Shown here: in pieces, positions 13,246 through 30,255 of the stretch
How positions within the stretch are numbered: the stretch's first letter is position 1
Layout of the letters: each line of letters opens with the position of its first letter
Assembly (NCBI RefSeq): GCF_000146505.1
Contig: NC_017448.1
Location: forward strand, 1,680,001 to 1,712,000
Source of the DNA: Fibrobacter succinogenes subsp. succinogenes S85
GTDB lineage: Bacteria > Fibrobacterota > Fibrobacteria > Fibrobacterales > Fibrobacteraceae
Direction of reading: 5' to 3'
Length of the DNA stretch: 32,000 nt
The notes under the pieces: generated by a model
Databases searched by the model: none
What the model saw: only the letters and a program-made list of their open reading frames with translations
What the model was told of the DNA's origin: nothing
Made by a program: the position numbers and the translations under genes

Positions 13246-13403
13246 TATCTACTCCGATAAAACATCTTGTATCAACAAGCACCAAGAATATACAAAAGTC
13301 TGCGGAAAAAAACTTTTAAAATGGTTTTGATTTCTTTTCATAAAGTCTTCATACGAAAAGCTTGCAAATAGTTATATTTCCTACTAAGGTTCAGGTTGCG
13401 AGA

Positions 13404-14573: not shown

Positions 14574-14611
14574 TCGGCAGAACTTAGTTGGCAGAGCTTA
14601 GAAATGCTTAA
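14574..14611. repeat. Tandem 14-mers TCGGCAGAACTTAG / TTGGCAGAGCTTAG followed by AATGCTTAA
   Basis: Two adjacent near-identical 14-mers (14574-14587 and 14588-14601), then AATGCTTAA (14603-14611). The same TTGGCAGAACTTAG ... AATGCTTAA unit recurs at 17057-17083. Confidence 0.7.
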
Positions 14612-14640
14612 AGAGAAAAGAGATGTTCTAAGTTCTAAAA

Positions 14641-15744
14641 TCACGGGATTCTCACGAATCGGGTGTTCGCAAGGATGAGTTCAAGCAGAATGAGGAGCGC
14701 ACCGACCAGAAGCCACGGGTAGAATTTTTCGGCATAGCGGGCGTAAGCAATCGTCTCAATTTCCGTTTTTTCGAGTTCATCGATTTCAGAGTAAATCTTT
14801 TCAAGTTCAGCCTTGTTTTCGGCACGGTAGAAACGTCCACCCGTCTTTGACGCAATCGCCTTGAGCACGTCCTCGTCAATGCCTTCCTCAGGCGTAATGT
14901 CGCGTTCGCCCCAGGAGATTTCACCAGTCCACGGGTTCTGCTGGAACGCAAGAATCTTGCCGGACTTTTTGCCGACACCGACAGTATAAACCTTCACGCC
15001 CAGGGACTTCGCCACCTCGGCAGCACGCACCGGCGGAACGACACTCGCATTGTCGCGGCCATCAGTCAAGAGAATCACCACGCGAGACTTGGCATCGGAC
15101 ATCTTGAGCCTGGCAAGCGCGTTCATCAAGCCATCGCCAATGGCGGTCCTGTTGTTCACAAGCGTATCGCGAGCAAGGTCGTCGCTTGCCTTCAAGATTT
15201 CAAGCAGGGAACCATAATCCATCGTGAGCGGACACTGCGTAAACGAGCGAGCGCCAAATGCCGAAAGGCCAATACGGTCGCTATGGCGCTTGCCAATAAA
15301 TTCGGCAATTACGTCCTGCGCGTAACCGAGACGGCTGTATTTCCAGTATTCGCCGCGTTTCAAGATTTTTTCGGCATTCATCACGCCAAGCTTCGCCTGT
15401 TCGGTACGGGTAAGCATGTCAAGCGTTCCCATAGAGCCCGAAACGTCAAGTGCAAGCATGATATCGACACCATCCGTCGAAGTGTATTCGACTTCCATCG
15501 CATTCTGCGGACGGGCAAGAGCCACCACAAAGCAAACGAGGGCAGCCAGGCGAAAAGCCGGAACAATATGCCTAAACCTTACACGACGGCTAGGAACCGC
15601 CTTCTTTGCAATGGCTAGCGCCGGGAACTTAATTGTACTCTTACGACGCTGCTGGCGGTAAACATAAAGCGCAACCAACAGCGGAACAAACAACAACAGC
15701 CAAAAGGCTTCGGGATTTTGAAAATGAAGGGCTCCAATATCCAT
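14641..15744 (-). CDS. VWA domain-containing membrane protein, BatA/BatB (aerotolerance) family
   Basis: N-terminal TM helices (AFWLLLFVPLLVALYVYRQQRRK; AFRLAALVCFVVALARPQ). MIDAS motif LALDVSGSMG, then ILLTDGRDN and VYTVGVG. C-terminal TM helix WLLVGALLILLELIL. Confidence 0.8.
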   Translation of the reverse strand: MDIGALHFQNPEAFWLLLFVPLLVALYVYRQQRRKSTIKFPALAIAKKAVPSRRVRFRHIVPAFRLAALVCFVVALARPQNAMEVEYTSTDGVDIMLALDVSGSMGTLDMLTRTEQAKLGVMNAEKILKRGEYWKYSRLGYAQDVIAEFIGKRHSDRIGLSAFGARSFTQCPLTMDYGSLLEILKASDDLARDTLVNNRTAIGDGLMNALARLKMSDAKSRVVILLTDGRDNASVVPPVRAAEVAKSLGVKVYTVGVGKKSGKILAFQQNPWTGEISWGERDITPEEGIDEDVLKAIASKTGGRFYRAENKAELEKIYSEIDELEKTEIETIAYARYAEKFYPWLLVGALLILLELILANTRFVRIP

Positions 15745-15830
15745 TTCAGCTCCAAAATAACGAAAAACGACAAATTACATGCAAGAATATACAATTTAGT
15801 CGTCGCGGAGACAATTCCGAAAACCGAATT

Positions 15831-16151
15831 CTACAACAGCATGAGTCCATCGACACCGAGCACGGTGAGACACGATACTACAGCGACTGTCACAAGGCCA
15901 CCACCGAGGAGCGATGCGACCACAGCGGCAAGGAGCGCGCAGGCGCCCGTCAAACGGCTATCCGTCGCAAAGAAGATCGCAGGCACGGTCATCGCACTGA
16001 GCACGGTATAAGGCACGTAAGCGAGGAACGAGCTCCAGAACACGCTCTTGAGCTTTTTGCGAAGCAAAATGAACGGCACCGCACGCAAGAACAGCGTCAC
16101 GCCAGCCATCACGAGCAAGTAAATCAAGTAAGTTTGCATGTTGATATTCAT
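15831..16151 (-). CDS. azlD: Branched-chain amino acid transport protein AzlD
   Basis: 106-aa hydrophobic protein (LVMAGVTLFLRAVPFILL...). Its start overlaps the azlC stop as ATGA (16148-16151), the classic azlCD arrangement. Confidence 0.75.
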   Translation of the reverse strand: MNINMQTYLIYLLVMAGVTLFLRAVPFILLRKKLKSVFWSSFLAYVPYTVLSAMTVPAIFFATDSRLTGACALLAAVVASLLGGGLVTVAVVSCLTVLGVDGLMLL

Positions 16152-16858
16152 TTGGCCACCTCGTCATCTGCATTGACGTTTTGCATCGGAAAGAGCCATG
16201 CTGCAATAAAGGATGCCACGAGTGCGCAAATGATAATTGCAAAACCGACAGACACGCCACTCAACGGCGGGAAGAACTTGAACGCGCAACTGAGCGCAAC
16301 CGCAATCACGACCGCAAAAACCGTCGGGCCATGCACCTTCATCTGCGGCACCACAATCGCCACAAACATGCCATAAAGAGCAACGCCAAGGGCATTCGTC
16401 ACCATCGCCGGGAGAATTTCACCGCAAATGGCACCAACCATCGTCCCAAGCGACCAGCCAATGTAAGGGAGCGTCGAAAGCCCAAAGAAGTAAATCGGCG
16501 TCACGCGCTTCTGCGACATTGCCACTGCAAAAATCTCGTCCGTGATGCCAGTCGCGAGCAAAAGGCGCTTTACCGTACCAAAATCCGACGAGACCTTCTG
16601 GGAAAGTGAAATCGCCATCAGCGAATAGCGGAGGTTGATAAAGAACGTCGCAAGCGCCATCTCGATAAACGTACCGGCAGCATCTGCCATGATCTGGAGC
16701 CCAGCAAACTGGCCTGCCGAGGTCAAATTCGTCATGGATATAAGCGTCACAAGCGGCCACGAAAAGATCTTTGAGCCCGCAATACCAAAAGAGAACGAGA
16801 CGGCAAAGTAGCCAAGCCCAATCGGGGAACCGTCCTTTAAGCCCTTCAAATAACTCAT
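16148..16858 (-). CDS. azlC: AzlC-family branched-chain amino acid permease/exporter subunit
   Basis: AzlC-like N-terminus GLKDGSPIGLGYFAVSFSFGI and the ...NLTSAGQFAG... motif. Polytopic membrane protein of 236 aa. Confidence 0.8.
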   Translation of the reverse strand: MSYLKGLKDGSPIGLGYFAVSFSFGIAGSKIFSWPLVTLISMTNLTSAGQFAGLQIMADAAGTFIEMALATFFINLRYSLMAISLSQKVSSDFGTVKRLLLATGITDEIFAVAMSQKRVTPIYFFGLSTLPYIGWSLGTMVGAICGEILPAMVTNALGVALYGMFVAIVVPQMKVHGPTVFAVVIAVALSCAFKFFPPLSGVSVGFAIIICALVASFIAAWLFPMQNVNADDEVAK

Positions 16859-17148: not shown

Positions 17149-17592
17149 TTAGTTTTCGCCGTTGCGCATTTCCATCGTTTCACGGTCCATCGTGTGCTGC
17201 AAGTATTCCTTGAAATCACGGTCGATGTTCACACCGTCAAAGTCGATGTCGTCGTTTTCCAACACGAACACGGCGCTCGGGTTATCAAGCCAGCCCACGA
17301 TGTCCACGTCTTCCAACTTCATGGACTTGTCGCCAGCCTTCTGGGCAACGTATTCAACCTTGGACTTCGGAACCCAGCCCTGACCGCAGGCGCCCTTCAC
17401 GAGGACTTCGGTATCGCCTTCTTTCAAGACTGTCATTTCGTCGTTGAAGCTAGCCGTGCAGACTACGGAGCCACCATCTTTTTCTTTGGTGAGTTCCACA
17501 TCGCCCAGCTTGGACTTGACCTTCTTGGCTGCAAAAGAAGAGGCAACCAGCAAAGCGAAGGCGACAAACATAATTTTTTTCATCATTTTCAT
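17149..17592 (-). CDS. Small secreted hypothetical protein
   Basis: Signal peptide MKMMKKIMFVAFALLVASSFA. The 147-aa product has an acidic C-terminal half. No family recognised. Confidence 0.65.
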   Translation of the reverse strand: MKMMKKIMFVAFALLVASSFAAKKVKSKLGDVELTKEKDGGSVVCTASFNDEMTVLKEGDTEVLVKGACGQGWVPKSKVEYVAQKAGDKSMKLEDVDIVGWLDNPSAVFVLENDDIDFDGVNIDRDFKEYLQHTMDRETMEMRNGEN

Positions 17593-18821: not shown

Positions 18822-21086
18822 CTAAAACAGATTGTAGTCACCGATGCGGATAAAGTATCTGTAGTTTTTGAATTCTCTCAAATCACCAAACGTTTCCGTA
18901 TCAACAACGCGGTTAAGGCCTGCGTAAACAGTAAACGAACGGTACTTATAGCGGAGCGCCGGTTCAAACACAAACTTATTTGAATTCAGCTTTGCTGTTG
19001 CCTTGTCTTCAAAATCGTGGACATACGCAAACGAAAGCCATGCGCCAAAGCCATGACGGTGAACACCACCGTTTAAGCGCAACATCGCATAACCATGCGT
19101 TGAAAGTTCTGGATCTTGCCAGTCCCCGGACCACGGCGTTGCCGCCACATGCAGGCGATAACGGTCTTCCATCGCGGGATTGTCAAAATTCTTGGGGTAC
19201 GCCATGCTGCCACCATCACGATAAGCATCAAAGCCCATAGCCATGCCCATCGTTATCGAAGCATTCCTAGCCGGTGAATAGGAGAGCCTTCCATCAAGAG
19301 TGTAAATCCCGTGAATCGGGCCTCTCTGGTGGAACCCGACCCCAATCAAGTTCATGCCAAGGCTTGCATTTGCGGCATAGCCCTTTGTGGCAAACCAGGG
19401 GTCATCTTCGCCATTCAACAACGAATAGTGAACACTCTGCGTCACCGGACTAGTCTCATAATTACTACTCGTATTCACGACGACATCGTCAAAGAAGTCT
19501 TCTTCGGGAATGGCGCTCGGAGCAAGTTCAAACTCGCGACTGCCAAACAGGAACTTGACCTCGACTGACTGCATTTTATCAATCGCGTATTTTGCAGACA
19601 GGAAAAGATCGTTACGCTTTTCAAACTTGATACGGTTCTCTTCAGGCACATTATCCTTCTCGAACGTCTTCAAAAAACACAACTTCATCAAGTCATAGCC
19701 AAAGCTAAATTTCCAGCGACGGTTAATCAAGTTCGAAAGCTCCAAACGCGGACGGAATCCGTAAGACGACGTCCCATAAAAGCCAGCCAACTTAAAACTG
19801 ATTTCCATCTGGTTGACGTAATTGAGAGCCACTTCACCATAGGCGTTAGCACCAATCACGTTAGAACCAAAGCCGCCCACCGCTACATCGACAGTCGGGT
19901 GAACGCCCACATCAATCAGGAGATCGCCTTCAGGCTGCATATTGAACGAGATTGTATCGTAAGGAGCCTTCGCCGTAATTGAATAAGCAAAGTTTGATGG
20001 AGCCACAAAGCCCGTATCTTCGGGACTCCAGTAAGAAGCAACCGCCGAATGGTGTTCCGACGAAAGACTGTCAAAAACAGGATTGAAGGCGAACCAAGCT
20101 TCGGACTTTTGCTTGTCCGTGTATTCCCTACGTCCATCAACCAACGGAATAATCTCGCGCAAACGACCTTCCACTGCCGAGAATCCCGCCTGAATCATGG
20201 ACTTGCGGGACGTATCGCGAATGGAATGCGCCCTCACAAACACGCCCTGCACATCACCCAGCTTTGACAAGACGTTGTTCTTAAGTTGACGCGTTTCAAC
20301 ATTGCCGTCCAAATCGTAACGAACGGGATCCGGCACAACGATAAGCACCGCTTCTTGCGGGTTCTTGACCAGGGGCAAAGCCAAGTACGGACAAAGTTCA
20401 CCGGACTTTTCATTCCCTGAAAGCGGGAGCGATGCGACAATATCGGCATAAGACGGATTTTCAATCACGCTATCGCAAGTCTGGAGCGTAAAGGGGATAC
20501 GATAGGAACCACGCTGGCGGTAAAGAGACTCCTCAAAGCGGAGGCGCGAAAGCGAACGTTCAATGGAAGCGGTATCGGGGACAAGCGCATGCATACTGCG
20601 ATAGACATTCCCTGCCGAATCCGCATAGAACGAAAACCTTTGGCGAAGCGTCGGGATACCCTCTATCGATAGCGGAATATCAAAACCGCTATGCTCTGTT
20701 TTATCATGGATCGTATTCGCCCCAACGAACTCAACAATCGAAGGATCCATCATCAAGCGCTGGATATCGTCAATCGAGACACCGAGCGACCAAAGCGCAC
20801 CCATCCAGGCGCCCCACGAAGTGGCGACAATGGAATCCACGGGAATCTTGTATTCTTCCAAAGCGTACAAAGCGCCCAAATGGAACCATGGCGAACGCTC
20901 GCCACCGCCGAGATAAAGCACAGACTTGGTCTTCTTGGCCTGCAGTGAATCGGGAACAAGCTGCATAGCGCTCAAAAGCGTTTCATCAGCGGAATGTGCC
21001 GCCTGGGCAGGCGCCACATAAACAGCAGCAATCGCCACTGCCAAAAGGAGCGTTTTTTTAAGCCAGCCGTGCGGGGTTGGAAACAT
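18822..21086 (-). CDS. Patatin-like phospholipase domain protein with a C-terminal outer-membrane beta-barrel (PlpD / type Vd-like architecture)
   Basis: Signal peptide ...VYVAPAQA/AHS. Patatin oxyanion motif LYLGGGERS and nucleophile elbow ATSWG (a variant of GxSxG). The C-terminal ~350 aa show alternating beta-strand-like sequence rich in G/Y/F and end in ...IRIGDYNLF, with the terminal aromatic typical of OMPs. Confidence 0.7.
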   Translation of the reverse strand: MFPTPHGWLKKTLLLAVAIAAVYVAPAQAAHSADETLLSAMQLVPDSLQAKKTKSVLYLGGGERSPWFHLGALYALEEYKIPVDSIVATSWGAWMGALWSLGVSIDDIQRLMMDPSIVEFVGANTIHDKTEHSGFDIPLSIEGIPTLRQRFSFYADSAGNVYRSMHALVPDTASIERSLSRLRFEESLYRQRGSYRIPFTLQTCDSVIENPSYADIVASLPLSGNEKSGELCPYLALPLVKNPQEAVLIVVPDPVRYDLDGNVETRQLKNNVLSKLGDVQGVFVRAHSIRDTSRKSMIQAGFSAVEGRLREIIPLVDGRREYTDKQKSEAWFAFNPVFDSLSSEHHSAVASYWSPEDTGFVAPSNFAYSITAKAPYDTISFNMQPEGDLLIDVGVHPTVDVAVGGFGSNVIGANAYGEVALNYVNQMEISFKLAGFYGTSSYGFRPRLELSNLINRRWKFSFGYDLMKLCFLKTFEKDNVPEENRIKFEKRNDLFLSAKYAIDKMQSVEVKFLFGSREFELAPSAIPEEDFFDDVVVNTSSNYETSPVTQSVHYSLLNGEDDPWFATKGYAANASLGMNLIGVGFHQRGPIHGIYTLDGRLSYSPARNASITMGMAMGFDAYRDGGSMAYPKNFDNPAMEDRYRLHVAATPWSGDWQDPELSTHGYAMLRLNGGVHRHGFGAWLSFAYVHDFEDKATAKLNSNKFVFEPALRYKYRSFTVYAGLNRVVDTETFGDLREFKNYRYFIRIGDYNLF

Positions 21087-22065
21087 ACCTACCTGCCTCT
21101 TCGGCAGTCACATAGTTAGAGCGAACAAGTTCTGCCAAGCAATCGTCCATCAAGAGCATGCCTTCAGATGAAGAGGAAGCCATCACGGACGTGAGCTTAA
21201 ACTGTTCGCCGCTGCGAATGTGAGCAGCCACGTTTTGCGTGTTAAAAAGGATTTCCCAGGCCGAAACGGCGCCACCGCCTTCAGCTGCAGCGGGCAAGAG
21301 TCTCTGCACGACAACAGCCTTGAGAGATGCCGCAAGCATGGTACGGACAAGGTCGCGATTTTCGGGAGTAGCTGCAGAAAGGAGAGCATCGACAACGCCA
21401 ACGGCGTTACCCGCCGTCACGTTCATGACCACCAAGGCGCCCGATTCTGCAGCACGTAAAATGGAAATCAACGACGAGCCGTCAAAATCGCCAAGCCAGA
21501 AAAGGTCCGTTCCGCTACGGAGGCCCTGTTCCAGCTTTTCGGAGGTCGAGCCGACCGTATTCACAAGCTTTAAGCTTTCACCCGTTTTCACAGGCAGTTC
21601 ACGGCTTTCATCCAAATCGCAGAACCGCAAAATGCCAGAACTGCACAAAGCCGAAACGTAAGACAGCGCCGAGACCGTTTTTCCAGAGCACGCTGGCCCT
21701 GCAAAAATCACGAGACCGGAACTGAGACCGAGCAGGCTATCGAGAGCCGCAGGCGCGCCAAGAGATGTAAAATCCGGACATTCGGCCATGAGCGGGCGGA
21801 ATATCACCGCATTGCCAAGCGCTTCGCGGAAGTACTTCACGCGCCACTTGGTGTTCACCCAAGGACCACCGACAAACGTTCCTGACTCGCCATCAATCGC
21901 GCCTAAAAATTCAAGCAAAGAGCCGAACGGGAGTGCTGTAGATTCGGGGACCGCACAGACGCGACCTGCAAAGCGGACCGCCGAAGGTGCGCCCTCGGTC
22001 ACAATCAATTCGCTTGCCCCGATGTTCAAGGCGTATTCCAAAAGAGATTCAATTTCTGATGCCAT
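21058..22065 (-). CDS. PilT-family (type IV pilus retraction ATPase-like) protein with degenerate Walker B and His box
   Basis: It appears colinear with PilT by eye: GASELIVTEGAPSAVRFAG (PilT: GASDLHL..G.PP..R..G). Walker A is GPACSGKT. The Asp-box region is ILRFCDLDE (PilT: ILTIEDPIE). Walker B is DLFWLGDFDG (PilT: DIILVGEMRD). The His box is ESGALVVMNVTA (PilT: ETGHLVFGTLHT). Confidence 0.75.
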   Translation of the reverse strand: MASEIESLLEYALNIGASELIVTEGAPSAVRFAGRVCAVPESTALPFGSLLEFLGAIDGESGTFVGGPWVNTKWRVKYFREALGNAVIFRPLMAECPDFTSLGAPAALDSLLGLSSGLVIFAGPACSGKTVSALSYVSALCSSGILRFCDLDESRELPVKTGESLKLVNTVGSTSEKLEQGLRSGTDLFWLGDFDGSSLISILRAAESGALVVMNVTAGNAVGVVDALLSAATPENRDLVRTMLAASLKAVVVQRLLPAAAEGGGAVSAWEILFNTQNVAAHIRSGEQFKLTSVMASSSSEGMLLMDDCLAELVRSNYVTAEEAGRYVSNPARLA

Positions 22066-22076
22066 GATGAACCTCG

Positions 22077-23723
22077 CTAAACCTTGCGGTAAGACGCAAA
22101 ACGGCGGCTGTCGTTTGCACGTTTCCAGGCTTCATTGCCTTCGATGTAACCGGATTCTACGCACATCTGCAAAGAATCGTCGAGCGTAATGCCTTGGTCT
22201 TTCTGATTGCTAATCGCAGAGAGGATCTGCGACACATCGCACTTGCGGATCATGCCCGCAATCGTCGACGTGACTTTCATCGCTTCGGTTGCAAGCACAA
22301 GACCCTGGTTTTGCACAGCAGGAATCAAGTGCTGCACGATGACGCCCTTGAGTTGTTCAGCAAGCGAGCATGCAAAGGCGGCTCGGTTCTCGCTCGGTAC
22401 AGACATGAGGAGGCGCGAAAGAAGCGCGTTGATATTATTGCCGCTTGCGACGGCAAATACGAGAGCGCCCGCGTTCGAAGCCTGCATGAGCAGGGAAAGT
22501 TCCTCCATCGTTTCGAGATGGTCAAAGAGAATCACGTCGGCGCCGGTGCGGATGGCAAGTTCGATGCCAGCGGCACCGGAGCGCACATGCAAGCCAACTT
22601 CGCGCTGGGCGATGGAGCCGTTCGGATTCTGGAGCAAGCGTTCAATCGGCTTTTCGACCGTCTGGATGAACACCTGGCGATTCGCAGCGATGCACTCGGC
22701 AAAGGCGGTCATCGTCGTGGAGCGGCCGCTCGACGACGGGCCAGCAATGAGTACAAGCCCGCTATTGAGCGTTGCAAACTGCATGCTGAATTCGGGCAAG
22801 TAAAGATTCTCGAGTGCCACCGATTCCATCGGAATGATGCGAATAGAAATGCTCGGCGTGACGTCGTTCCACGTCACGGAAATGCGGGCACGACCAACAC
22901 CCGGGAGACCCATAGTCTTACTGAAATTGCGGCCGACCACAATCTTGTAGCCGTCTGCAAAACCTTCGGCCGCTTCGGCCAGGCGGTCCATCAAATGCGT
23001 TTTTTCAAGCACTTTCTCAGACGCAATAAAGAGCTTGCCGGACTGGCGCATGGTAATCTGGCGGTCGGCGTAAAGGTAAACGTCCGTGACGTTAAACTTG
23101 CGGGCGTAAGCGATGATTTTTGCAAGCGGCGTAATCGGGTGCAAGACATCGGGAGCTTCAACGGCTTCGCCTTCGCCGGTAGCAACGGCGAACTGCGACG
23201 GAAGTTCTTCGGTCGCAGTTTCTTCGGCGGGCGTTTCGCTTTCGACCGGAACTTGCACGCTCGCCATGCTCGTCGTTTCGAGGCCTTCAACCTTTTCGAT
23301 GACGACCGTCGAAGAAGAGGCTTCGCCGTAAAGGCTGCTGTTGCCTTCAATCTTTATGGCGGGTTCTTCTTCCGGCTGCGGAGCAGGCGCGGCTGAAACT
23401 GCAGCGGGTGCAGGTTGCGCGGGAGCAGTGGGATGAGCCGAGGCCGAAGACTGTGCCGGCGTTGATGCGGATGGCGCGGGGGCTGCAGACGAGGCTGCCG
23501 CGGGCTTTTCAGCAGGTTTTGAAGCGGGCTTCGCATTTTTCGCTTCAAGGTTCTTCACAAATGCAAGAACCTTATCGTACATGGACTGTTTCAAGATTCC
23601 CGCACGAACAAGAACCTGACCGATATCCATCGAGTCGGAGATTTCGCCCCAGTGGGCCTTGACCTGGTCCTCGGACACAACCTTGTTGTGTACAAGAACC
23701 TTTGCCATGTACTGATTTCTCAT
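22077..23723 (-). CDS. PilT/GspE-superfamily protein with all catalytic motifs degenerate, an N-terminal T2SSE_N/MshEN-like domain and a low-complexity linker
   Basis: The C-terminal ~350 aa are PilT-like. Walker A is GPSSSGRST (Lys to Arg). The Asp box is FIQTVEKPIE. Walker B is DVILFDHLET. The His box is NAGALVFAVASGNN. The N-terminus MAKVLVHNKVVSEDQVKAHWGEISDSMDIGQVLVRAGILKQSMYDKVLAFV resembles the GspE/MshE N-domain repeat. Residues ~61-190 are Ala/Pro/Ser/Thr/Glu-rich. The start ATG overlaps the permease stop (ATGA); Met6 (23708) is an alternative start. Confidence 0.75.
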   Translation of the reverse strand: MRNQYMAKVLVHNKVVSEDQVKAHWGEISDSMDIGQVLVRAGILKQSMYDKVLAFVKNLEAKNAKPASKPAEKPAAASSAAPAPSASTPAQSSASAHPTAPAQPAPAAVSAAPAPQPEEEPAIKIEGNSSLYGEASSSTVVIEKVEGLETTSMASVQVPVESETPAEETATEELPSQFAVATGEGEAVEAPDVLHPITPLAKIIAYARKFNVTDVYLYADRQITMRQSGKLFIASEKVLEKTHLMDRLAEAAEGFADGYKIVVGRNFSKTMGLPGVGRARISVTWNDVTPSISIRIIPMESVALENLYLPEFSMQFATLNSGLVLIAGPSSSGRSTTMTAFAECIAANRQVFIQTVEKPIERLLQNPNGSIAQREVGLHVRSGAAGIELAIRTGADVILFDHLETMEELSLLMQASNAGALVFAVASGNNINALLSRLLMSVPSENRAAFACSLAEQLKGVIVQHLIPAVQNQGLVLATEAMKVTSTIAGMIRKCDVSQILSAISNQKDQGITLDDSLQMCVESGYIEGNEAWKRANDSRRFASYRKV

Positions 23724-24529
23724 AAGAAATCCCTCCGGCTAAACCACCAACTTGCGATGGCCAAGAACACGCCGATATAACCAAGTGCATAGACGCTGTT
23801 CCAGAACACGTACATGTCCGGGAGCGCTACCCCATGCACCACATAGTTCGTCACGTTAAAGCGATAAAGTCCAGGGAATACGGCGTGAATCACGACCGCC
23901 GCCTTTTCAAGAATTGCAGAAGAAGTTCCCTGCAGTTCGCCCATGCGGCTTGCAAACTTGACCTGTTCCATAAGCTGGTCGCTCAAGTGGCCCGCAAAGT
24001 AAACGCCAAGCGTAAAGAGCGCAGAAAGCACCGTGCTACTGAAATTGCTGAACAGGAGTGCGACAGCAATCACGACTGCCATTTCACAGAAGATGAGGTA
24101 AATCGCCGTCAATAAGCTCAATGTCGGGCTAGAATTTGTAATCCACAGAATCGCATAATAGATTCCCGTGAGGAGCGTCAGGTGAACGGCAACAACCGCC
24201 AAAAGTCCAAAGTACTTGCCCACGATAAACGCGGCACGGCTAATAGGCTTTGACAAAAGCGTGAGCACTGTGCGCCGCTGGATTTCCTTTTGCACAAGGC
24301 TAATGCCCACAAATATGGAAATCAGAAGACCCGAAAGGCTCATCACCGAAAGCGTCGTAGACTTGATGACGTAAGCGCGGTCAAACACCGACCACTCGCC
24401 AAGCACAATGCTAAAAAGCGTAAGTGCAATCGCCAAAAAGTCAATGTTATAAAGAATCTTGTCGCGAATGGATTCGCGGAACGTATTGAGGGCAATAATG
24501 CCGATATGCTTAAGCGTCTGCACGGGCAA
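23720..24529 (-). CDS. ABC-2 type transporter permease (NosY/GldF-like, 6 TM)
   Basis: 269-aa polytopic membrane protein with a typical ABC-2 N-terminus (IALNTFRESIRDKILYN...) and the motif EIQRRTVLTLLSKPISRAAFIVGKY. It overlaps the ABC ATPase gene by 20 nt. Confidence 0.75.
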   Translation of the reverse strand: MPVQTLKHIGIIALNTFRESIRDKILYNIDFLAIALTLFSIVLGEWSVFDRAYVIKSTTLSVMSLSGLLISIFVGISLVQKEIQRRTVLTLLSKPISRAAFIVGKYFGLLAVVAVHLTLLTGIYYAILWITNSSPTLSLLTAIYLIFCEMAVVIAVALLFSNFSSTVLSALFTLGVYFAGHLSDQLMEQVKFASRMGELQGTSSAILEKAAVVIHAVFPGLYRFNVTNYVVHGVALPDMYVFWNSVYALGYIGVFLAIASWWFSRRDFL

Positions 24530-25445
24530 TTTCCTCCGTCAAAATATCTTCGAGACTCGGACGCTTGTGGTCCATCTTTTCTACGGCAATCCCATTCGAG
24601 AGACAGAAGCCGAGCAAACGATCGCGGGCGACATCGTCAGCGCAGATGTATTCTTGCGGGTGACCCGTTGCAGAAACACCGCGAGGCAAGTCCGCTTCCA
24701 AAATCGCCTGGCGCGTCCGCACATGATATTCCACACCGCAGGATTCCGTGATTTCATCGACGGTCCCTTCGCGGACAATCTTGCCATCGACAATCATCGC
24801 CACGCGGTGGCTGATGCTTTCCACGTCGCTCAATAAATGGCTCGAATAGAAAATCGTCACGCCATCGCGGTTGAGCTGCTGGATAGCCTCGCGCACGTCA
24901 CGACGACCCATCGGGTCCAGGCCGCTCATCGGTTCGTCGAGAATCAAAAGCTTCGGCTTGCCAAGAATCGCCTGGGCAATCCCCACGCGCTGCATCATGC
25001 CCTTGGAATACGAACGCAAGCGGCGGTCGATCCAGTCCTTGTTTGCGTGCAAAAGTTCAAGCGCCCAGCCAATACGGGATTCGAGTTCCGCGCCCTTGAG
25101 GCCCACAAGCTTTCCGTAAAAACGCAAAAGTTCACGACCCGAGAGATAATCGTAAAAATACGGCTGTTCCGGAGAATAACCGATATACTGGCGGCTCTTC
25201 ACATCGCGCGGGCTGATGCCGTTTACAAGCACCTTGCCCGAATCAAAATTCAAAAGTCCTGTCAGAACCTTGATAGTGGTGGACTTGCCCGCCCCGTTAG
25301 GTCCAATAAATCCATACACCTTGCCCGCTTCGACATTGAAGCTCACGTCCTTGAGCGCAAGCTTCGGCTTCATCGTAAAGCCACTGCGATACGTCTTGTG
25401 CAGGTGTTCAATTTCAATCATCAAATCACTCATACACGCAATCAC
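24510..25445 (-). CDS. ABC transporter ATP-binding protein (ABC-2/GldA/NatA-like, with C-terminal accessory domain)
   Basis: All motifs are intact: Walker A GPNGAGKST, Q-loop YSPEQ, signature YSKGMMQRV, Walker B LLILDEPMSGLD and H-loop YSSHLL. The start is either GTG at 25445 (GTGA overlap with the upstream stop) or ATG at 25433 (MSDLMIEIEHL). Confidence 0.9.
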   Translation of the reverse strand: MIACMSDLMIEIEHLHKTYRSGFTMKPKLALKDVSFNVEAGKVYGFIGPNGAGKSTTIKVLTGLLNFDSGKVLVNGISPRDVKSRQYIGYSPEQPYFYDYLSGRELLRFYGKLVGLKGAELESRIGWALELLHANKDWIDRRLRSYSKGMMQRVGIAQAILGKPKLLILDEPMSGLDPMGRRDVREAIQQLNRDGVTIFYSSHLLSDVESISHRVAMIVDGKIVREGTVDEITESCGVEYHVRTRQAILEADLPRGVSATGHPQEYICADDVARDRLLGFCLSNGIAVEKMDHKRPSLEDILTEEIARADA

Positions 25446-25759
25446 TTGTTAGAATTTTCGTCGGAATCGCTAGCCGCATCTTCGCTAGACACATCATCGG
25501 AATCGCTGAGACCAGCCGCCTTGTAGGATTCTTCAATTTCTCGACGGCGACGGTCCGCTTTCTCTTTCTTGTTGATGAAAAAGTAAATGACGGCACCGAC
25601 CAAATACACGACAATGCCCGAATAGAAAATCGGGTTGATAGATTTTCCCTCAAGACCGGGGAAAACGTTCAAAATAATCTCGTGACCAAAAAGCGAAAGC
25701 AGCACCAAGATAAAACCGAGCGCCCTAAGCACATGAGTGACAATCACTATTTTTTGCAT
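25442..25759 (-). CDS. Small membrane protein (2 TM helices, charged/acidic Ser/Asp-rich cytoplasmic tail); first gene of the operon
   Basis: The 105-aa product has hydrophobic segments LRALGFILVLLSLFG and IFYSGIVVYLVGAVIYFFI, then KKEKADRRRREIEE...SDSDDVSSEDAASDSDENSNK. An AGAGG SD-like element lies upstream of the ATG at 25759. Confidence 0.6.
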   Translation of the reverse strand: MQKIVIVTHVLRALGFILVLLSLFGHEIILNVFPGLEGKSINPIFYSGIVVYLVGAVIYFFINKKEKADRRRREIEESYKAAGLSDSDDVSSEDAASDSDENSNK

Positions 25760-25880
25760 CGTAAACCTCTAAACGATGCCGTACAACCCGCACGGCATTC
25801 ACATTTTGAATATATGTATTTATAGATGAAAAAGGCGAGCTAAATCGCGAATATCGTGCGATTTTAAGCGATTTACACGC

Positions 25881-25913
25881 AAAAAAGGCCTTGCGGTGGG
25901 ATGCCACAGGGCC
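25881..25913 (-). terminator. Rho-independent terminator after the 174-aa lipoprotein gene, insulating it from the six-gene operon
   Basis: An 11-bp stem (25887-25897 pairs with 25903-25913, one mismatch and two G-U pairs), a 5-nt loop, then U6 on the minus strand (A-run 25881-25886). A second hairpin, TGCCTGC-TCGGGG-GCAGGCA, sits at 25953-25972. Confidence 0.75.
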
Positions 25914-25987: not shown

Positions 25988-26512
25988 CTATTTTACTTTC
26001 ACGCAGCGGACGGAGGCGGCGATGGTCTTGTTGTAATGCTCGTACGTTACTTTGTCCTGTACGCGGACCATCACAGCGCGGGATTCGTCGAATGCATCAG
26101 CAGTCCAGAAGCTTGCACTCACGTTTTCGTCGGCGAACTTGCCATCGTAATAGCGGAAGCCATCCTTACCGATGTTGAGAGCCTTGAAATCAGCCTTTTC
26201 GAAGTCAGCCTGTTTAGGGAGTTCCCAGCCTGTGGGGCATGCGTCATTGGCGGATTTCCAGTCATAGAGGCGGCCATACTTTTTGCAGTTGTCGAGGTTA
26301 TTGCCGTAGCAGTAACTGGAATCAAAATTCAGAAGGTTGGCGTTTTCAGCCATCCACACGCGGCCACCCGTTTCGACGGTGGAATAGGTTTGGCCTTGGC
26401 ATTTGAGCGTCTTGGCGGATTCATCGTAATGACAGTTTTCAACTTTTTCGCATGCAGTAAATGCAATGGCGGCGACAAAAAGAGCCAATACGGCAACGAA
26501 CTTGAACTTCAT
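25988..26512 (-). CDS. Lipoprotein consisting of a Fibrobacter succinogenes major paralogous (FISUMP, TIGR02145-type) domain
   Basis: Lipobox AFTAC. Domain hallmarks are GRVWMAENANL, YGRLYDW..A..ACPTGWELP and the C-terminal SVRCVKVK. Confidence 0.85.
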   Translation of the reverse strand: MKFKFVAVLALFVAAIAFTACEKVENCHYDESAKTLKCQGQTYSTVETGGRVWMAENANLLNFDSSYCYGNNLDNCKKYGRLYDWKSANDACPTGWELPKQADFEKADFKALNIGKDGFRYYDGKFADENVSASFWTADAFDESRAVMVRVQDKVTYEHYNKTIAASVRCVKVK

Positions 26513-26663: not shown

Positions 26664-27419
26664 CTAGCCTTTCACGTGAATTGCGGCGGCGAATTCTTTG
26701 AGAAGAGCCGGGTCATTGACTTTTTCCCAAAGGGTGCCGGTGACAATGATCTGGGCGCCAGCGGCAACGCGGACAGCCGCTGTCTGCGGGTCCTTGATTC
26801 CACCACCGGTGATAATCGTCATTTCGGTCGACTTGCGGGTGTAAGCGATATGTTCGACCGGCACAGGTTCTTCTGCACCGCTACCCGCTTCGAGGTAAAC
26901 GTAGCGCATGCCCATGAGTTCTGCAGCGATGGAGTTCACCATGCTGAGCTTCGGCTTGTTGGCTGGCACCGGCATCGTGTTACTGATGTATTCGACCGTC
27001 GTACGCTTGCCACTGTTGATGAGCTGGTAAGCCGTCGGGATGGCTTCCATGTTGAGCGCACGCACGAGGGCGCCACCGCGCACCTGTTCGTCAATGAGGT
27101 AGTTCGGATTGCGGCCGCTCACGAGCGTCATGAAAAGCATGGCATCAAAGCCAGGAACGACCTGAGAAGCGCCACCCGGGAAAAGAATCACCGGCAAGTC
27201 GACAGCGGCTTTGAGGGCAGCGACCTGTTTCGGGAGCGTGAAATTGCCGAGATAAGAACCTCCGACCAAAAGCAAGTCCGCGCCGTTTTCAGCCGCCATC
27301 GAGCCTGCCTTGACAAAGGCGGCCTCGTCCGAAGTATCCGGATCCAAGAGCACAGCAAAAAGTGCACCGCGCTTTTCGATATCAGCATTCAAACGGAGTT
27401 CAGTCTTACCAGGTTTCAT
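26664..27419 (-). CDS. Geranylgeranylglyceryl phosphate synthase family prenyltransferase (GGGPS / PcrB family)
   Basis: TIM-barrel GGGPS/PcrB signatures: FAVLLDPD, ADLLLVGGS, PVILFPGG, LVSGRNPNYLI, YVYLEAGSGA and ITGGGIKDPQTAAVRVAAGAQIIVTG. The 251-aa length fits the family. Confidence 0.85.
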   Translation of the reverse strand: MKPGKTELRLNADIEKRGALFAVLLDPDTSDEAAFVKAGSMAAENGADLLLVGGSYLGNFTLPKQVAALKAAVDLPVILFPGGASQVVPGFDAMLFMTLVSGRNPNYLIDEQVRGGALVRALNMEAIPTAYQLINSGKRTTVEYISNTMPVPANKPKLSMVNSIAAELMGMRYVYLEAGSGAEEPVPVEHIAYTRKSTEMTIITGGGIKDPQTAAVRVAAGAQIIVTGTLWEKVNDPALLKEFAAAIHVKG

Positions 27420-27665: not shown

Positions 27666-29415
27666 TTAGTTTTTGACGCAGCGAACACTTATGCGTACAT
27701 CCGGATCATCAGACACATTGTAATCCATCGGCTTCCAGTTATCCATTGTAAGTACCCATACCGACCACGCACCTTTGTATTCCTGATCTAAAAATGTCAT
27801 ATACTCCACCGTAATATCGCCAAATCCAATCTGGTGCAAATACTGTGAGGCGTACCATCCAAAGCCCTCATAAACCTCAAATTGTTCCCTGCAATCCTGA
27901 GAATAACATTCACCACTTTCTTTTTCGGCAAAGTAAAATACTCGAGACCATTCCTTACGAGTCGGGATATGCCACCCATCCGGGCAAATACCCTGGAAAT
28001 GCCCATTATCCATTACAATCGAATCGCCACCAATGACGTCAGAAACAGCGTATCCCGCATAAGTTTCCCAATACGAGGAATCACGCGAATTGATGTATTC
28101 TTCAAATTCACCATCGCGGCCCTGATTTTTAACAAAGAAAGCCGAATCAATTTCCAAAACAGGCTGAACAAGCGAATCGCTATACCTCAGGTTTTCAGCA
28201 AACCAGGTATAAGTTGAACCCTCGAAACTGTACGTCACCGTATTATAGACTTTTCCATCGCGAGCATCCGTCATCGTCCCTTTCGTAACAGAGAAAGCCT
28301 CTTCAATTTCTTCCGGGGTATTCTTATCCAAAATAGTCCACGCGCCCGAAACACACGTAATATCCTTAAACAGCTTTGACTCGCACGGAAGTTCTACAGT
28401 ACGCCCTTCCGATTCCGCAGTACACGTCCCAAGTTCATAAAGGGTTGCCAAGAAACCATCCAAGAATGCGGGATTCCCTGGTCCGGATTTCATACGGACT
28501 CGGAACGAATACGCATTATCAGCGAAAAAGCCCCTTATCGAATCTACCGACGTAAACGTCCCTGACGACCCAAACACATCAGCAAGAATAATCGGTGAAT
28601 TTGTCCGTCTCCAATAAGACGTAAACGCATTCATATAAAGCATCGCAGTTTCATATTTAGAATATGCGGGATACCTACCTTTATCGAAATAAAAACTACC
28701 ATTAGGCAAGCCAAAAGCACTGAGAATTTCACGATCGGCCCTGTTGTTTTGCAGCCGCGAAGTCCATTCCTTGACGGACAAGATAACGCAAGCGAGCGGC
28801 CTCCAAATAAGTCATGATGTTGATATCAACGCCACCAGAATCCCGCACATCAACGATTATGCTATACGTTATCGGATACTCTCCCCAAATTTCATCATAG
28901 GCATCAAAAGACCATGTTCCGTCCCACGTCCAAGAACCATCTTCAACGTAAGGTGCGATTTCAAGCATGACATACGGGCTGTTCAGCGAAACGCTGTCAA
29001 AACGGAATTCGCCGTCATAACCGTTGCACTTGGCAAAATAAAACACGCCTGTCGTATCCAAAGTCACCGAATCCAATTCAGCCATTCTTATAATCGTACC
29101 TTCTTTCGCGGCTACACTCCACGTGTTCATGGCAGAACTATCAACGACTTCAGTACTTTCAACATTACGAGCTAGCATTTTTGCACCACCCGTCACGTTT
29201 ATATTCGGAAGCAAAGCTTCAACAGAGGGTTCCTCGGAAGAGCCTCCTAAATAGCTCGTTTCTTCAGTGGAACCGCCCATAGAGCAGCCTACAACCATCA
29301 CAGCGAAGAACGTAGCGATAGCAAAGTTCAAGATTATACTCAAGCCAGCAATCAGGAACAATCGCAAGTTTGTCTTTTTACAGACAAGTTGTCCGCAATT
29401 TTTTGAGTAATTCAT
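27666..29415 (-). pseudogene. FISUMP-domain lipoprotein gene interrupted by a 1-nt frameshift (fragments 28729-29415 and 27666-28781)
   Basis: The upstream fragment carries a lipoprotein signal (VMVVGCS) and ends ...RQGMDFAAAKQQGRS*. The downstream fragment has only a TTG 'start' and continues ...ADREILSAFG.... Joined, the two fragments are colinear with the intact paralog at 30555->32000 (...KFGMSFAEAKKQASKEVLESFG...). Removing one G from the GGG run (+ strand CCC, 28739-28741) restores the frame. The C-terminal part has CPDGWHIPT and SVRCVKN. Confidence 0.8.
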
Positions 29416-29424: not shown

Positions 29425-30255
29425 CTAACCCTTTTTAACACTCTTTTTTGTCAACGGGAAAAACTGAACGTTCAGTCGGTAGACCTCGTCCGTTTCGTCA
29501 TCGCGCGTGGCAATCGCAATGATGCGCTTGCGGAATGCAGCGATTTCCTCAACAATTTCATCGTAAGCAGATTGCGTGATACCGAGCGTGAGGCCAGAAA
29601 AATGGCGTTGATCTTGCGGCACACCTTCAATAGTTTCAAGTGCGAACTCGCCCATCTGGCGATGCATTCCGCGAACAGCCACAGGAGTCACATCCATAGG
29701 TCCTGTCGTTACGGATTTTTCAGTTTGGACATAATTGCCGTTTTCGTCTTTTTGCAACAAGTTCGCCTTGATCAAGAAACTCAGCGATTCAGAGACTTCG
29801 GCGGCAGTGATTTCCGGGCGGCAGGCTTTGGCAAGCGCAAGCGGTTTTGCGCCAGGCATGGCAGGGGCTAGTTCACGGAGTACCGGATTTTTCCAGCTAT
29901 CAAAATAACGGAAGGAATCTCCCTCAAGGACTCTTACTTTATGGATGTCAGCGATAGCGAGCATTTTGTTGAAAATGGACTTTTTCTCTTCGTCCGTTTT
30001 CGCATGGTCGAACCTGACCATTTCGCAAAAGTAATCCTGTTCGTAATTTGCAAGGCCCATCGCAGATGCCACTTGACCTGCAGTTTCTTCGCTCAAGTTA
30101 GAGCGGCCTTCACTCACGTATTTTAGGAACACCGGCGACGAAAACCCTGCCGCCCGCGTAAAAGTTTGCCAAGTAAACGCGGATTTTGCCTTTTTCTCGG
30201 CGTAATAATCCGCGATGTACTGGTGATAGTTCGTGTACTCTAGTACATCCTTCAT
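29425..30255 (-). CDS. TIGR02147-family protein (second F. succinogenes paralogous family; DUF4423-like, probable N-terminal HTH)
   Basis: The family-typical N-terminus is YHQYIADYYAEKKAKSAFTWQTFTRAAGFSSPVFLKYVSEGRSNLSEE. A strong RBS, GTTAGGAGGATA, precedes it. The stop lies 9 nt upstream of the FISUMP lipoprotein start. Confidence 0.75.
   Translation of the reverse strand: MKDVLEYTNYHQYIADYYAEKKAKSAFTWQTFTRAAGFSSPVFLKYVSEGRSNLSEETAGQVASAMGLANYEQDYFCEMVRFDHAKTDEEKKSIFNKMLAIADIHKVRVLEGDSFRYFDSWKNPVLRELAPAMPGAKPLALAKACRPEITAAEVSESLSFLIKANLLQKDENGNYVQTEKSVTTGPMDVTPVAVRGMHRQMGEFALETIEGVPQDQRHFSGLTLGITQSAYDEIVEEIAAFRKRIIAIATRDDETDEVYRLNVQFFPLTKKSVKKG

Follow-up and report, generated by a model that had tools for sequence, protein, structure and literature searches.

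The six minus-strand genes between positions 25759 and 18822 of the window (the 32,000-nucleotide stretch of Fibrobacter succinogenes S85 DNA analysed here) constitute an accreted, separable module built around an ancient tandem pair of PilT-family genes. On the line to Fibrobacter, (i) the pair gained a downstream gene for a PL-Omp85 protein, (ii) genes for a two-TM protein and an ABC-2 exporter were also gained upstream, and (iii) after these gains the pair lost its catalytic residues in the Fibrobacteraceae and remains full-length and conserved. The six genes form one constitutively expressed operon, Fisuc_1020-1015 in S85. We tentatively suggest (probability about 0.38) that this operon serves to remodel envelope lipids under the control of a non-catalytic PilT ring; we consider this reading the most likely one, and its main rival is an accessory role in type IV pilus function.

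Organization and conservation of the operon

The operon and its borders comprise the following features.

25881..25913 (approximate), minus strand: intrinsic terminator of the upstream Fib_succ_major gene and upstream boundary of the operon; hairpin AAGGCC...GGCCTTTTTT and T-run
25760..25880, minus strand: intergenic leader of ~120 nt from terminator to g1 ATG, probable promoter region
25442-25759, minus strand: ORF g1, 105 aa
24510-25445, minus strand: ORF g2, ABC ATPase, 311 aa; alternative starts at 25433 and 25421
23720-24529, minus strand: ORF g3, ABC-2 permease, 269 aa
22077-23723, minus strand: ORF g4, long PilT-like protein, 548 aa
21058-22065, minus strand: ORF g5, short PilT-like protein, 335 aa
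18822-21086, minus strand: ORF g6, PL-Omp85 protein, 754 aa
18702..18714, minus strand: terminator-like G+C hairpin between the convergent g6 and mltG, by consensus match only

The initial annotation had described six packed minus-strand ORFs, and all six lie where it placed them. The ORF list likewise bears out the 20-nt overlap, the ATGA overlap, the 11-nt gap and the 29-nt overlap at the g2/g3 to g5/g6 junctions. At g1/g2 the GTGA overlap stands, whereas the gap to the alternative ATG at 25433 is 8 nt and not 9 nt; in the annotation of g2 orthologs the start is the following ATG, at 25421 (303 aa). The proposed upstream terminator is readable as a hairpin with T-run, and a terminator-like site is also predicted. 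A promoter probably lies in the leader, which has no Rfam family match and no sigma-70 consensus site. The convergent mltG downstream is confirmed by PF02618 in orthologous loci, and Pfam matches exceeding the curated cut-offs recover the assigned families: ABC_tran, ABC2_membrane_2, T2SSE (in two genes) and Patatin.

The junctions from g2 through g5 are overlaps or gaps of at most 14 nt in every locus, those of g1/g2 and g5/g6 are tight in most loci, and junction lengths are kept across loci, including the ATGA of the permease and long PilT-like genes. In S85 the orthologs of the six genes (g1 being Fisuc_1020) fall into one expression cluster with a mean r of 0.85 among the six and of -0.37 against the flanks, and their expression is flat across conditions. 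The tight conserved junctions and this co-variation support the single transcription unit originally proposed; co-transcription by itself is no proof of a common function.

The block is colinear and on the same strand in 69 of 69 Fibrobacter/Hallerella loci with enough sequence, which represent 66 species-level genomes, and colinearity persists although g6 identity drops to 30% and the flanks vary. The full six-gene module is also present in two distant metagenomic lineages, L070 and L072, with unrelated flanks and only 27-62% identity, and the six families are accordingly co-localized well outside the genus. From synteny, junctions and background loci, the linkage of the six genes appears to be beyond chance and selected.

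A different view would be that the operon is one of convenience, in which housekeeping genes for an exporter of the ABC-2 class, for PilT paralogs that are relics and for a PL-Omp85 lipase are merely co-transcribed, their products act independently and synteny is inherited rather than selected. Indeed, the three parts occur separately elsewhere, expression is flat, the catalytic decay of g4 and g5 could be a step to loss, and synteny reaches pcrB upstream and mltG downstream in many Fibrobacter loci, so that part of the conservation is plain inheritance. We nevertheless regard this view as unlikely: the six-gene order recurs in L070 and L072 between wholly different flanks, the stop/start overlaps at the junctions are kept, these neighbours are missing from each of 80 background PilT-like loci (a g3-type permease is absent from all 80), and 69 loci retain g4 and g5 at full length and with their replacement residues conserved, a pattern that speaks for purifying selection rather than decay.

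The PilT-like pair

Within g4 three parts can be distinguished.

23532..23723, minus strand: N-terminal domain of g4, aa 1-64, MshEN-like four-helix bundle of two ~24-residue repeats
23127..23531, minus strand: linker of g4, aa ~65-199, Ala/Pro/Ser/Glu-rich, length-variable
22077..23126, minus strand: ATPase part of g4, aa ~200-548, PilT-family fold, catalytically degenerate

Both proteins match PF00437, align with PilT structures (Aquifex PilT in the case of g5) and score below the TIGR01420 cut-off of 319.1 bits (g4, 186.9 bits; g5, 133.8 bits); they share only 28% identity. g4 has lost the Walker A Lys (always Arg), the Asp-box Asp, the Walker B Glu and both His-box histidines. The resulting motifs GPxxSGR[ST], EKPIE and FDH and the lost His box are found in 69 of 69 orthologs, and the replacement residues (Arg, His) are conserved as well. 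g5 keeps an invariant Walker A motif, GxxCSGKT, but its Asp box and His box are gone and Asp or Asn stands in for the Walker B Glu. The earlier claim that both proteins have lost their catalytic motifs is, therefore, correct for g4 and for g5 with the exception of the Walker A GKT; because this site is present, nucleotide binding by g5 would still be possible.

The N-terminal domain of g4 has no Pfam match and is conserved in distant family members. Its model (pLDDT 86, four helices) has as best PDB fold match MshE-N with c-di-GMP (5htl; probability 0.96, TM 0.66, rmsd 1.7 A over 53 columns), followed by PilF GSPII-A and PilB-N; it is without the (R/K/L)LG consensus residues and without the C-terminal subdomain. 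The linker, which is probably disordered, is the variable region of family alignments (g4 orthologs range from 522 to 617 aa).

On sequence comparison the tandem pair is ancient and widespread. It is found alone in L074, L076 (Chitinivibrionales), L077 (Omnitrophica) and L078 and together with a PL-Omp85 gene, without ABC genes, in L071, and these separate occurrences identify the module as separable and accreted. Outside the Fibrobacteraceae, homologs of the pair keep the Walker A, Asp box and Walker B motifs intact, together with at least one His-box histidine; the g4 homologs in L071 to L078 have all four motifs intact, and outside-group homologs of g5 are near-canonical PilT proteins. In the motif comparison with outgroups, degenerate motifs are confined to Fibrobacter, F. 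intestinalis and L070, which suggests that among the lineages examined both ATPases degenerated only in the Fibrobacteraceae. The pseudo-ATPase state is derived and no design feature of the system, given that L072 carries the full module with both ATPases intact.

The pair resembles PilT/PilU in that two neighbouring genes encode PilT-family proteins with a complete PilT fold and in having intact homologs outside the Fibrobacteraceae. It differs in that both Fibrobacter proteins are catalytically degenerate, in the MshEN-like bundle and long linker of g4 and in the VVSEL and GTMNT motifs of active g4 relatives. This likeness underlies the main rival explanation, according to which the operon is a type IV pilus accessory module: the inactive pair would dock on the pilus platform and modulate or block retraction, which would favour stable cellulose adhesion, the ABC-2 transporter together with the small TM protein would stand in for Myxococcus PilG/H/I, and the PL-Omp85 protein would adjust lipids around the secretin. 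A catalytically dead PilT reportedly acts as an adaptor for PilU, the g4 bundle is a regulatory domain typical of pilus ATPases, and an envelope-spanning machine could explain a link between cytoplasmic ATPases and an outer-membrane protein even in the ABC-less L071. Moreover, all Fibrobacteres genomes encode PilA/B/C/D/M/N/O/Q and 2-3 PilT genes (PMC4704652), pilins have been implicated in Fibrobacter adhesion (PMC3079729), and M. xanthus PilG/H/I, an ABC-like set in the pil cluster, is needed for pilus biogenesis (PMC3724824, PMC6060248). By description, this set likewise combines an ABC ATPase and membrane partners linked to PilT-family genes; however, it lies within a full pilus cluster and has no known PL-Omp85 partner, whereas no pilus gene adjoins the module in any locus examined and the papers found give no connection of PL-Omp85 proteins with pili. 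S85 also has a separate canonical pilT next to pilC, so that retraction does not require g4 and g5. On balance, we regard a pilus accessory role as doubtful.

The small membrane protein and the ABC-2 transporter

g1 is predicted to reside in the inner membrane and has two hydrophobic helices followed by a charged/acidic C-terminal tail. It belongs to no Pfam or NCBIfam family; the two-helix core with an FPGLEG motif is conserved in 66 loci and the tail is variable, and the equivalent place in the operon is taken by a small TM gene in both L070 (83 aa) and L072 (62 aa). g2 has a DrrA/NosF/ABCA-type nucleotide-binding domain (PF00005, 100.8 bits) and a C-terminal domain. Its Walker A, signature, Walker B and H-loop motifs are complete and do not vary among 55 orthologs, which makes it the sole intact ATPase in the Fibrobacter operon, as first noted. 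g3 is an ABC-2 (type V) permease (PF12679, 34.6 bits against a cut-off of 27.2) with 75-97% identity across Fibrobacter, 62% in L070 and 49% in L072, and it has no PDB sequence match.

The closest solved relatives of g2 are ABCA3/1/4/7, which give the best scores, and NosF, whose alignment covers the whole of g2, C-terminal domain included (E 8e-46). NosFY is an ABC-2 system that energizes a periplasmic process rather than pumping a solute, and NosY presumably belongs to the Pfam family of g3, ABC2_membrane_2; unlike NosDFY, the operon encodes no NosD/NosL-like periplasmic partner. Among subfamily models g2 scores 197 bits for drrA and 181 bits for GldA, both below cut-off. The latter score and the ABC-2 type of g3 recall GldA/GldF/GldG, but the GldA model sets its cut-off at 402.6 bits, far more than the 181 scored, and there is neither a GldF match nor a GldG gene; we conclude that the operon is not a Gld system member.

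The PL-Omp85 protein

g6 is a PL-Omp85 protein (PlpD/FplA, "type Vd") with a patatin domain, one POTRA unit and a 16-strand Omp85 barrel.

20997..21086, minus strand: signal peptide of g6, aa 1-30, ending ...APAQA/AH; from sequence and low pLDDT, cleavage site inferred
20097..20927, minus strand: patatin-like domain of g6, aa ~54-330, with GGG oxyanion motif and nucleophile Ser90 in [AG]-[TV]-S-W-G
19902..20084, minus strand: POTRA-like unit of g6, aa 335-395, model order beta-alpha-alpha-beta-beta
18822..19895, minus strand: 16-strand Omp85-type beta-barrel of g6, aa 398-754, ending ...GDYNLF, from the model

The signal peptide, patatin domain and barrel ending in Phe of the first description were borne out; the signal peptide is of the Sec type, the patatin domain is N-terminal, and the barrel has an Omp85 fold and follows a POTRA-like unit. 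In Foldseek the barrel matches BamA, TamA and Sam50 (E ~1e-11, probability 1.00), and the alignments to BamA/TamA span ~450-500 columns, more than the barrel alone; neither barrel nor POTRA unit has a Pfam family at the sequence level. These matches, and PlpD (5fqu) as the only PDB sequence match of the enzyme domain, with ATSWG aligned to GTSMG, support the PlpD-like identity given to the last gene. At ~728 aa, PlpD of Pseudomonas aeruginosa is close to g6 in length. g6 has the same layout as PlpD and Fusobacterium FplA, including a Gly-rich oxyanion motif and the Ser nucleophile elbow in the patatin domain, a single POTRA, a 16-strand Omp85 barrel and an aromatic C-terminus; unlike them it is very divergent, Pfam matching only the first third of the patatin profile (PF01734, 34.4 bits against 27.7, positions 5-60), and its gene lies in an operon with PilT-like and ABC-2 genes. 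Such a context is absent from PMC11116518 (in which 'operon' occurs 0 times) and from the other papers found.

Ser90 is invariant in orthologs, many of which carry Ala in place of the first Gly of GxSxG. There is no canonical DG[GA] Asp motif, and conservation of the candidate D253 does not extend beyond the F. succinogenes-like clade. Given the lack of a recognizable catalytic Asp motif and an L072 homolog without the nucleophile Ser, lipase activity seems not to be assured across the family.

The lipase domain of PlpD, the prototype of the PL-Omp85 proteins, is periplasmic and not secreted, its barrel does not translocate the patatin domain, and PlpD is tied to outer-membrane lipid homeostasis, with deletion of plpD raising many phospholipids (PMC11116518). 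The roles of outer-membrane conduit or secreted effector proposed for the patatin barrel are, therefore, unlikely. The same applies, more strongly, to the idea of a trans-envelope machine for secretion or transport, with export powered by the ABC ATPase, the pseudo-PilT ring as scaffold and the patatin barrel as outer-membrane channel or released effector. Its components are predicted to reside in the cytoplasm, inner membrane and outer membrane and their genes are tightly coupled, but L071 lacks the ABC part and the pair occurs elsewhere without both partners. Among the six ORFs and their Pfam matches there is no membrane-fusion, secretin, LptC/A-like, GldG-like or other periplasm-spanning protein; without an adaptor gene such a machine has no physical basis in the sequence, and we regard it as highly improbable.

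A proposed model: envelope-lipid remodelling

In the model that we favor, the PL-Omp85 protein would, by analogy with PlpD, be embedded in the outer membrane, place its lipase domain in the periplasm and act on inner-leaflet phospholipids. The ABC-2 transporter, as the only working ATPase, would move lipid or a lipid-derived substrate across the inner membrane or, alternatively, pass force across it like NosFY. The PilT-like proteins would form a non-hydrolysing ring on the cytoplasmic face that acts as a nucleotide- or signal-sensing regulator or adaptor and not as a motor, g5 still binding nucleotide and g4 taking input via its MshEN-like domain. The output would plausibly be control of outer-membrane lipid content and, hence, of vesicle release and surface adhesion.

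The lipid part of the model builds on the periplasmic lipase of PlpD, the lipid rise upon plpD deletion, and ABCA phospholipid exporters and NosF as nearest relatives of g2; the regulatory part builds on the invariant g5 GKT, the conserved g4 replacements and the MshE-N match. Several points speak against it: the patatin domain has no recognizable catalytic Asp motif, the MshEN-like domain is without its consensus residues and C-terminal subdomain, the resemblance of the g2 nucleotide-binding domain to ABCA proteins is common to the whole ABC-2 class and points to no lipid substrate, and a cytoplasmic ring has no reach to an outer-membrane protein. Taken with the ABC-less L071, the last of these implies that the link between the pair and the PL-Omp85 protein needs another inner-membrane component.

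A functional parallel exists in E. coli, in which the Mla ABC transporter and the outer-membrane phospholipase PldA, not encoded in one operon, jointly keep the outer-membrane lipid balance. The analogy is functional only, as the families are unrelated (MlaE/MlaD versus ABC-2; OMPLA versus patatin-Omp85), and, unlike the operon, Mla and PldA involve no PilT-like proteins. PldA has been compared with PlpD (PMC11116518). In line with the initial annotation, no paper found describes the combination of genes reported here, and this operon provides a genetic handle on the role of PlpD-type proteins.

Operon structure, conservation and expression

The operon is real, conserved and co-expressed, and it consists of three separable parts. 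An ORF check of the window located all six minus-strand ORFs where the initial annotation had placed them, and four of the junctions that it had described are correct, i.e. a 20-nt overlap between genes 2 and 3, an ATGA overlap between genes 3 and 4, an 11-nt gap between genes 4 and 5, and a 29-nt overlap between genes 5 and 6. For the junction between genes 1 and 2 it had offered either a GTGA overlap, which is present, or a 9-nt gap to the ATG at 25433, which measures 8 nt; gene 2 orthologs are annotated with the ATG at 25421 as the start. Both proposed boundaries were also found: a terminator consisting of a hairpin with a T-run closes the upstream gene, and mltG lies downstream and is convergent to gene 6. 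The operon and the features around it are as follows:

18822-25759, minus strand: operon of gene 1 (105-aa protein with two transmembrane segments), gene 2 (ABC ATPase, 311 aa), gene 3 (ABC-2 permease, 269 aa), gene 4 (long PilT-like protein, 548 aa), gene 5 (short PilT-like protein, 335 aa) and gene 6 (patatin/barrel protein, 754 aa)
23127-23531, minus strand: Ala/Pro/Ser/Glu-rich linker of gene 4
22194-23396, plus strand: example of a long spurious ORF in the G+C-rich linker stretch of gene 4
about 25881-25913: upstream terminator
25988-26512, 27666-28781 and 29425-30255, minus strand: two Fib_succ_major paralogs and a DUF4423 gene
26664-27419, minus strand: pcrB (PF01884, GGGP-synthase family)
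17149-17592, minus strand: 147-aa ORF, signal-like at its N-terminus and unassigned in Pfam
12217-15744: two BatA/VWA genes around a GGDEF diguanylate cyclase gene
3271-4191, minus strand: MlaD-domain gene (another lipid-transport family)

Among the products, the Pfam families ABC_tran, ABC2_membrane_2, T2SSE (twice) and Patatin all exceed their curated cut-offs, and gene 1 received no family assignment in Pfam and NCBIfam profile searches. An Rfam search of the window gave zero matches, arguing that the operon leader contains no riboswitch, and a promoter scan returned no more sites than shuffled sequence. The gene 4 linker differs greatly in length from one ortholog to another; the proteins carrying it total 522-617 aa among orthologs and 455-660 aa among distant relatives.

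Scanning a single genome for each species yielded 66 loci, which originate from Fibrobacter, Hallerella, one Fibrobacterales genome and three contigs with implausible labels, and three further loci were added in the colinearity comparison. Wherever the contig reaches, the six genes are colinear and on a single strand; the lowest identities across these loci are 65% (gene 2), 75% (gene 3), 42% (gene 4), 46% (gene 5) and 30% (gene 6), and the flanks vary. Gene 6 is 83% identical to its counterpart in Fibrobacter sp. UWB12. Junction lengths are kept across the loci compared, the overlap between genes 2 and 3 being 14-20 nt in 61 loci. Neighbourhood conservation of the six families, which the initial annotation had named as a check, is thus observed in 69 Fibrobacter-type loci and also in two distant metagenomic loci, L070 and L072. 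Three loci (L058, L059 and L061), whose contigs were submitted under the labels Eggerthellaceae, Oscillospiraceae and a Methanomethylophilaceae archaeon, have the full Fibrobacter-type module together with mltG; their module identities are those of F. intestinalis, and they are probably mis-binned Fibrobacter contigs.

In S85, the operon corresponds to Fisuc_1020 to Fisuc_1015 and adjoins mltG (Fisuc_1014). The six genes share one expression cluster in the data set of Neumann et al. 2018 (PMC6204037); over 14 conditions, their mean r is 0.85 (minimum 0.60) versus -0.37 with three flanking genes. The expression level of the operon is moderate and almost flat over conditions. The locus tags FSU_1469-1474, a guess at the operon's alternative names, do not occur in the S85 envelope-proteome files, which is evidence neither for nor against its products in the envelope.

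Several neighbours were recorded in addition. In 45 of the 69 Fibrobacter loci, pcrB shares the strand of the operon and precedes it by one or two genes, and in the F. intestinalis clade it adjoins gene 1; this proximity may reflect a lipid-related link to the module or mere inherited synteny. Fib_succ_major and DUF4423 are families expanded in Fibrobacter, and the first of these upstream genes (25988-26512), which sits between pcrB and the operon, is inserted in this lineage only. The 147-aa ORF is always found beside mltG, and its S85 ortholog, Fisuc_1013, is expressed at a very high level (log2 ~12). The BatA/VWA and GGDEF genes are 3-9 kb downstream of the operon, and the MlaD-domain gene is ~15 kb from it.

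The PilT-like pair

Both PilT-like proteins pass PF00437 and score under the TIGR01420 cut-off of 319.1 (gene 4, 186.9 bits; gene 5, 133.8 bits). They are old paralogs and share only 28% identity. Compared to Aquifex PilT, the Walker A Lys is replaced by Arg in gene 4, a substitution present in 69 of 69 orthologs, the Asp box reads EKPIE, Walker B has Asp-His (FDH) in place of Gly-Glu, and the His box lacks histidines (AVASG). Gene 5 has kept a full Walker A (GPACSGKT, with GKT in every ortholog compared) and has lost the Asp box (DESRE), the Walker B Glu, which is Asp (GD/GN in orthologs), and the His box (NVTAG). The suggestion that both proteins had lost their motifs therefore applies to the motifs for hydrolysis and had overlooked the retained Walker A of gene 5, a possible nucleotide-binding site. 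As had also been suggested, only the ABC ATPase is catalytically complete in the operon, and the motifs of gene 2 never vary across orthologs. The Asp box, the Walker B Glu and a His box with at least one histidine are present in outgroup homologs of both proteins, and the loss of catalytic motifs in both is specific to the Fibrobacteraceae lineage.

The N-terminal domain of gene 4 has no family in Pfam. A structure model built with family members (pLDDT 86) predicts a bundle of four helices made up of two ~24-residue repeats. Compared against 350,542 PDB chains, the domain is closest to c-di-GMP-bound MshE-N (5htl, TM 0.66 over 53 columns), PilF GSPII-A and PilB-N, and its small size leaves these three top matches with E-values of at least 1. 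The Pfam MshEN model (PF05157) covers the alpha/beta subdomain only and does not touch the helical repeats, for which the published consensus is (R/K/L)LGxx(L/V/I)(L/V/I)xxG(L/V/I)(L/V/I)xxxxLxxxxLxxQ. Gene 4 departs from this consensus: repeat I starts with Y-M-A and repeat II with D-I-G. For the most part, the repeats agree with it at the hydrophobic positions and at Gly10; they differ at the first residue and at the final Gln. Moreover, the C-terminal alpha/beta subdomain is missing, since PF05157 gives no match (the control protein P0544 matches at 1e-17) and the low-complexity linker follows directly after the bundle. Given these missing elements, binding of c-di-GMP by this domain is possible and not indicated.

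The ABC-2 transporter and the patatin/barrel protein

Genes 2 and 3 are adjacent and encode an intact nucleotide-binding domain and a six-TM ABC-2 permease, with PF00005 and PF12679 passing their cut-offs. The nearest solved relatives of gene 2 are the ABCA phospholipid exporters, and its full-length match is NosF. Gene 3 belongs to ABC2_membrane_2, as does NosY, and has no sequence relative in the PDB. Membership in GldAFG was rejected: gene 2 scores 181.4 bits versus the GldA cut-off of 402.6, and there is no GldF match and no GldG gene.

For gene 6, the initial annotation had described a patatin domain followed by an OMP-like barrel ending in Phe, a description confirmed by PF01734 (34.4 bits, cut-off 27.7), by the structure model and by Foldseek. 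The model, obtained from a 22-sequence alignment (pLDDT 78.7, pTM 0.70), consists of an alpha/beta domain, a beta-alpha-alpha-beta-beta element at aa 335-395 and 16 strands up to the C-terminal Phe. In Foldseek searches of the PDB, BamA, TamA and Sam50 are the top matches (E ~1e-11), and a single POTRA unit is predicted, the alignments to BamA and TamA exceeding the length of the barrel. The C-terminal NLF is the aromatic beta-signal of an Omp85 barrel. Pfam detects neither a POTRA nor an Omp85 family in gene 6, and because it is blind to both, the architecture is recognised by structure only. Gene 6 thus has the PL-Omp85 ("type Vd", PlpD/FplA) architecture.

In the enzyme domain, the oxyanion motif is Gly-rich with an invariant G61-G62, and Ser90 in the elbow [AG]-[TV]-S-W-G is invariant in Fibrobacter. 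The sole PDB sequence match of this domain is PlpD, which aligns across the oxyanion and nucleophile motifs (GTSMG in PlpD). Gene 6 has no DG[GA] motif for the catalytic Asp. The candidate D253 was rejected as a conserved catalytic Asp, as it is conserved in the F. succinogenes-like clade alone and replaced in F. intestinalis, in the Fibrobacter-type locus L068 and in the distant loci L070 and L071.

Distribution beyond Fibrobacter

A word-indexed search with gene 5 returned close Fibrobacter orthologs only, and an exhaustive phmmer search of representatives with gene 4 reached farther, delineating a wider family in which a ~65-residue N-domain is joined through a variable linker to a PilT-like ATPase. 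Most of the distant members have kept every catalytic motif, in versions marked by VVSEL and GTMNT, and the short member of the pair is near-canonical PilT in all outgroups. All six genes of the module are present between unrelated flanks in L070, where gene 4 is 37-40% identical and the motifs are degenerate as in Fibrobacter. L072, a marine locus from Tara Oceans (27% identity), has the full arrangement, again with unrelated flanks, and both ATPases intact; on this basis, we rejected the idea that the pseudo-ATPase state is intrinsic to the module. In L071, a full-length gene 6 homolog comes directly after the pair and ABC genes are absent, and the pair is alone in L074, L076 (Chitinivibrionales), L077 (Omnitrophica) and L078.

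These arrangements fit a history in which an ancient active pair was joined by the PL-Omp85 and small-TM/ABC-2 genes and in which catalysis was subsequently lost in Fibrobacteraceae. A control set of 80 PilT-like metagenome loci, picked by generic PilT patterns and therefore a background sample rather than extra copies of the module, contained 43 tandem pairs, no gene 3-type permease and one weak generic patatin match. That the six genes form an operon of convenience is an unlikely reading, which we rank after a pilus accessory role: the parts do occur separately, and they recur in the same arrangement between unrelated flanks.

In L072, the protein at the gene 6 position (12851-15307) has GSGWG for G-x-S-x-G and LGEDFK for GGG, and its patatin domain is probably inactive; with patatin motifs lost and both PilT-like ATPases intact, this locus is the reverse of the Fibrobacter state. 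In L078, an unrelated 533-aa patatin gene (14889-16490) lies on the opposite strand 5 kb from the stand-alone pair and adjoins PLD-like and scramblase-like genes, which may be a coincidence.

Discussion

All six genes belong to known families, within which they are divergent. In agreement with the initial annotation, which knew of no such module, we found neither the conserved combination nor the evolutionary series in the literature searched.

A periplasmic patatin domain, a homodimeric state and phospholipase A1 activity are properties known for PlpD only; loss of plpD increases many phospholipids, and the function proposed for the protein is lipid homeostasis of the outer membrane rather than secretion (Hanson et al. 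2024, PMC11116518). By analogy with this periplasmic domain, gene 6 as a secreted type Vd effector was rejected. The initial annotation had envisaged a trans-envelope machine; the operon encodes no periplasm-spanning part and the proposal conflicts with current knowledge of PlpD, making it very improbable. We tentatively suggest, with a probability of roughly 0.38, that the operon functions in envelope-lipid remodelling. In this model, the putative PL-Omp85 lipase would act facing the periplasm, the ABC-2 transporter would supply the only energy of the unit, and the PilT-like ring, being non-hydrolysing, would regulate it.

The main rival explanation is an accessory role in pilus function, which we consider rather doubtful. 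Every Fibrobacteres genome encodes a set of pilus proteins and has 2-3 genes with a PilT annotation (PMC4704652). A literature precedent for linking an ABC-like system with pilus genes comes from PilG/H/I of M. xanthus (PMC3724824, PMC6060248), which would be the counterparts of genes 1-3 in this reading. In S85, the canonical pilT is separate from the operon and located beside pilC, and in none of the examined loci are pilus genes present within 10 kb of the module.

Returning to envelope-lipid remodelling, a more speculative and improbable version is that the PilT-family ring, an ancestral motor turned into a non-hydrolysing switch in Fibrobacter, governs the ABC-2 transporter and, through it, the supply or removal of lipids for the PL-Omp85 phospholipase, in that way setting outer-membrane lipid and vesicle release. 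If true, ring, ABC-2 transporter and PL-Omp85 would together make up an envelope system of a kind not recognised before, and the PlpD family would for the first time have defined partners in a pathway.

In the 2024 study, the role of PlpD in outer-membrane lipid homeostasis was inferred only (PMC11116518), and the conserved, translationally coupled operon offers concrete candidate partners for a PL-Omp85 of the PlpD type in such a role. The loci also provide a natural series from a hexameric motor ATPase to a non-catalytic subunit, i.e. an active pair alone, an active pair in the module and an inactive pair in the module. In Fibrobacter, which is among the major cellulose degraders of the rumen, both adhesion and the production of vesicles rely on the envelope, and a constitutive, genus-wide envelope operon is therefore relevant to fibre digestion.
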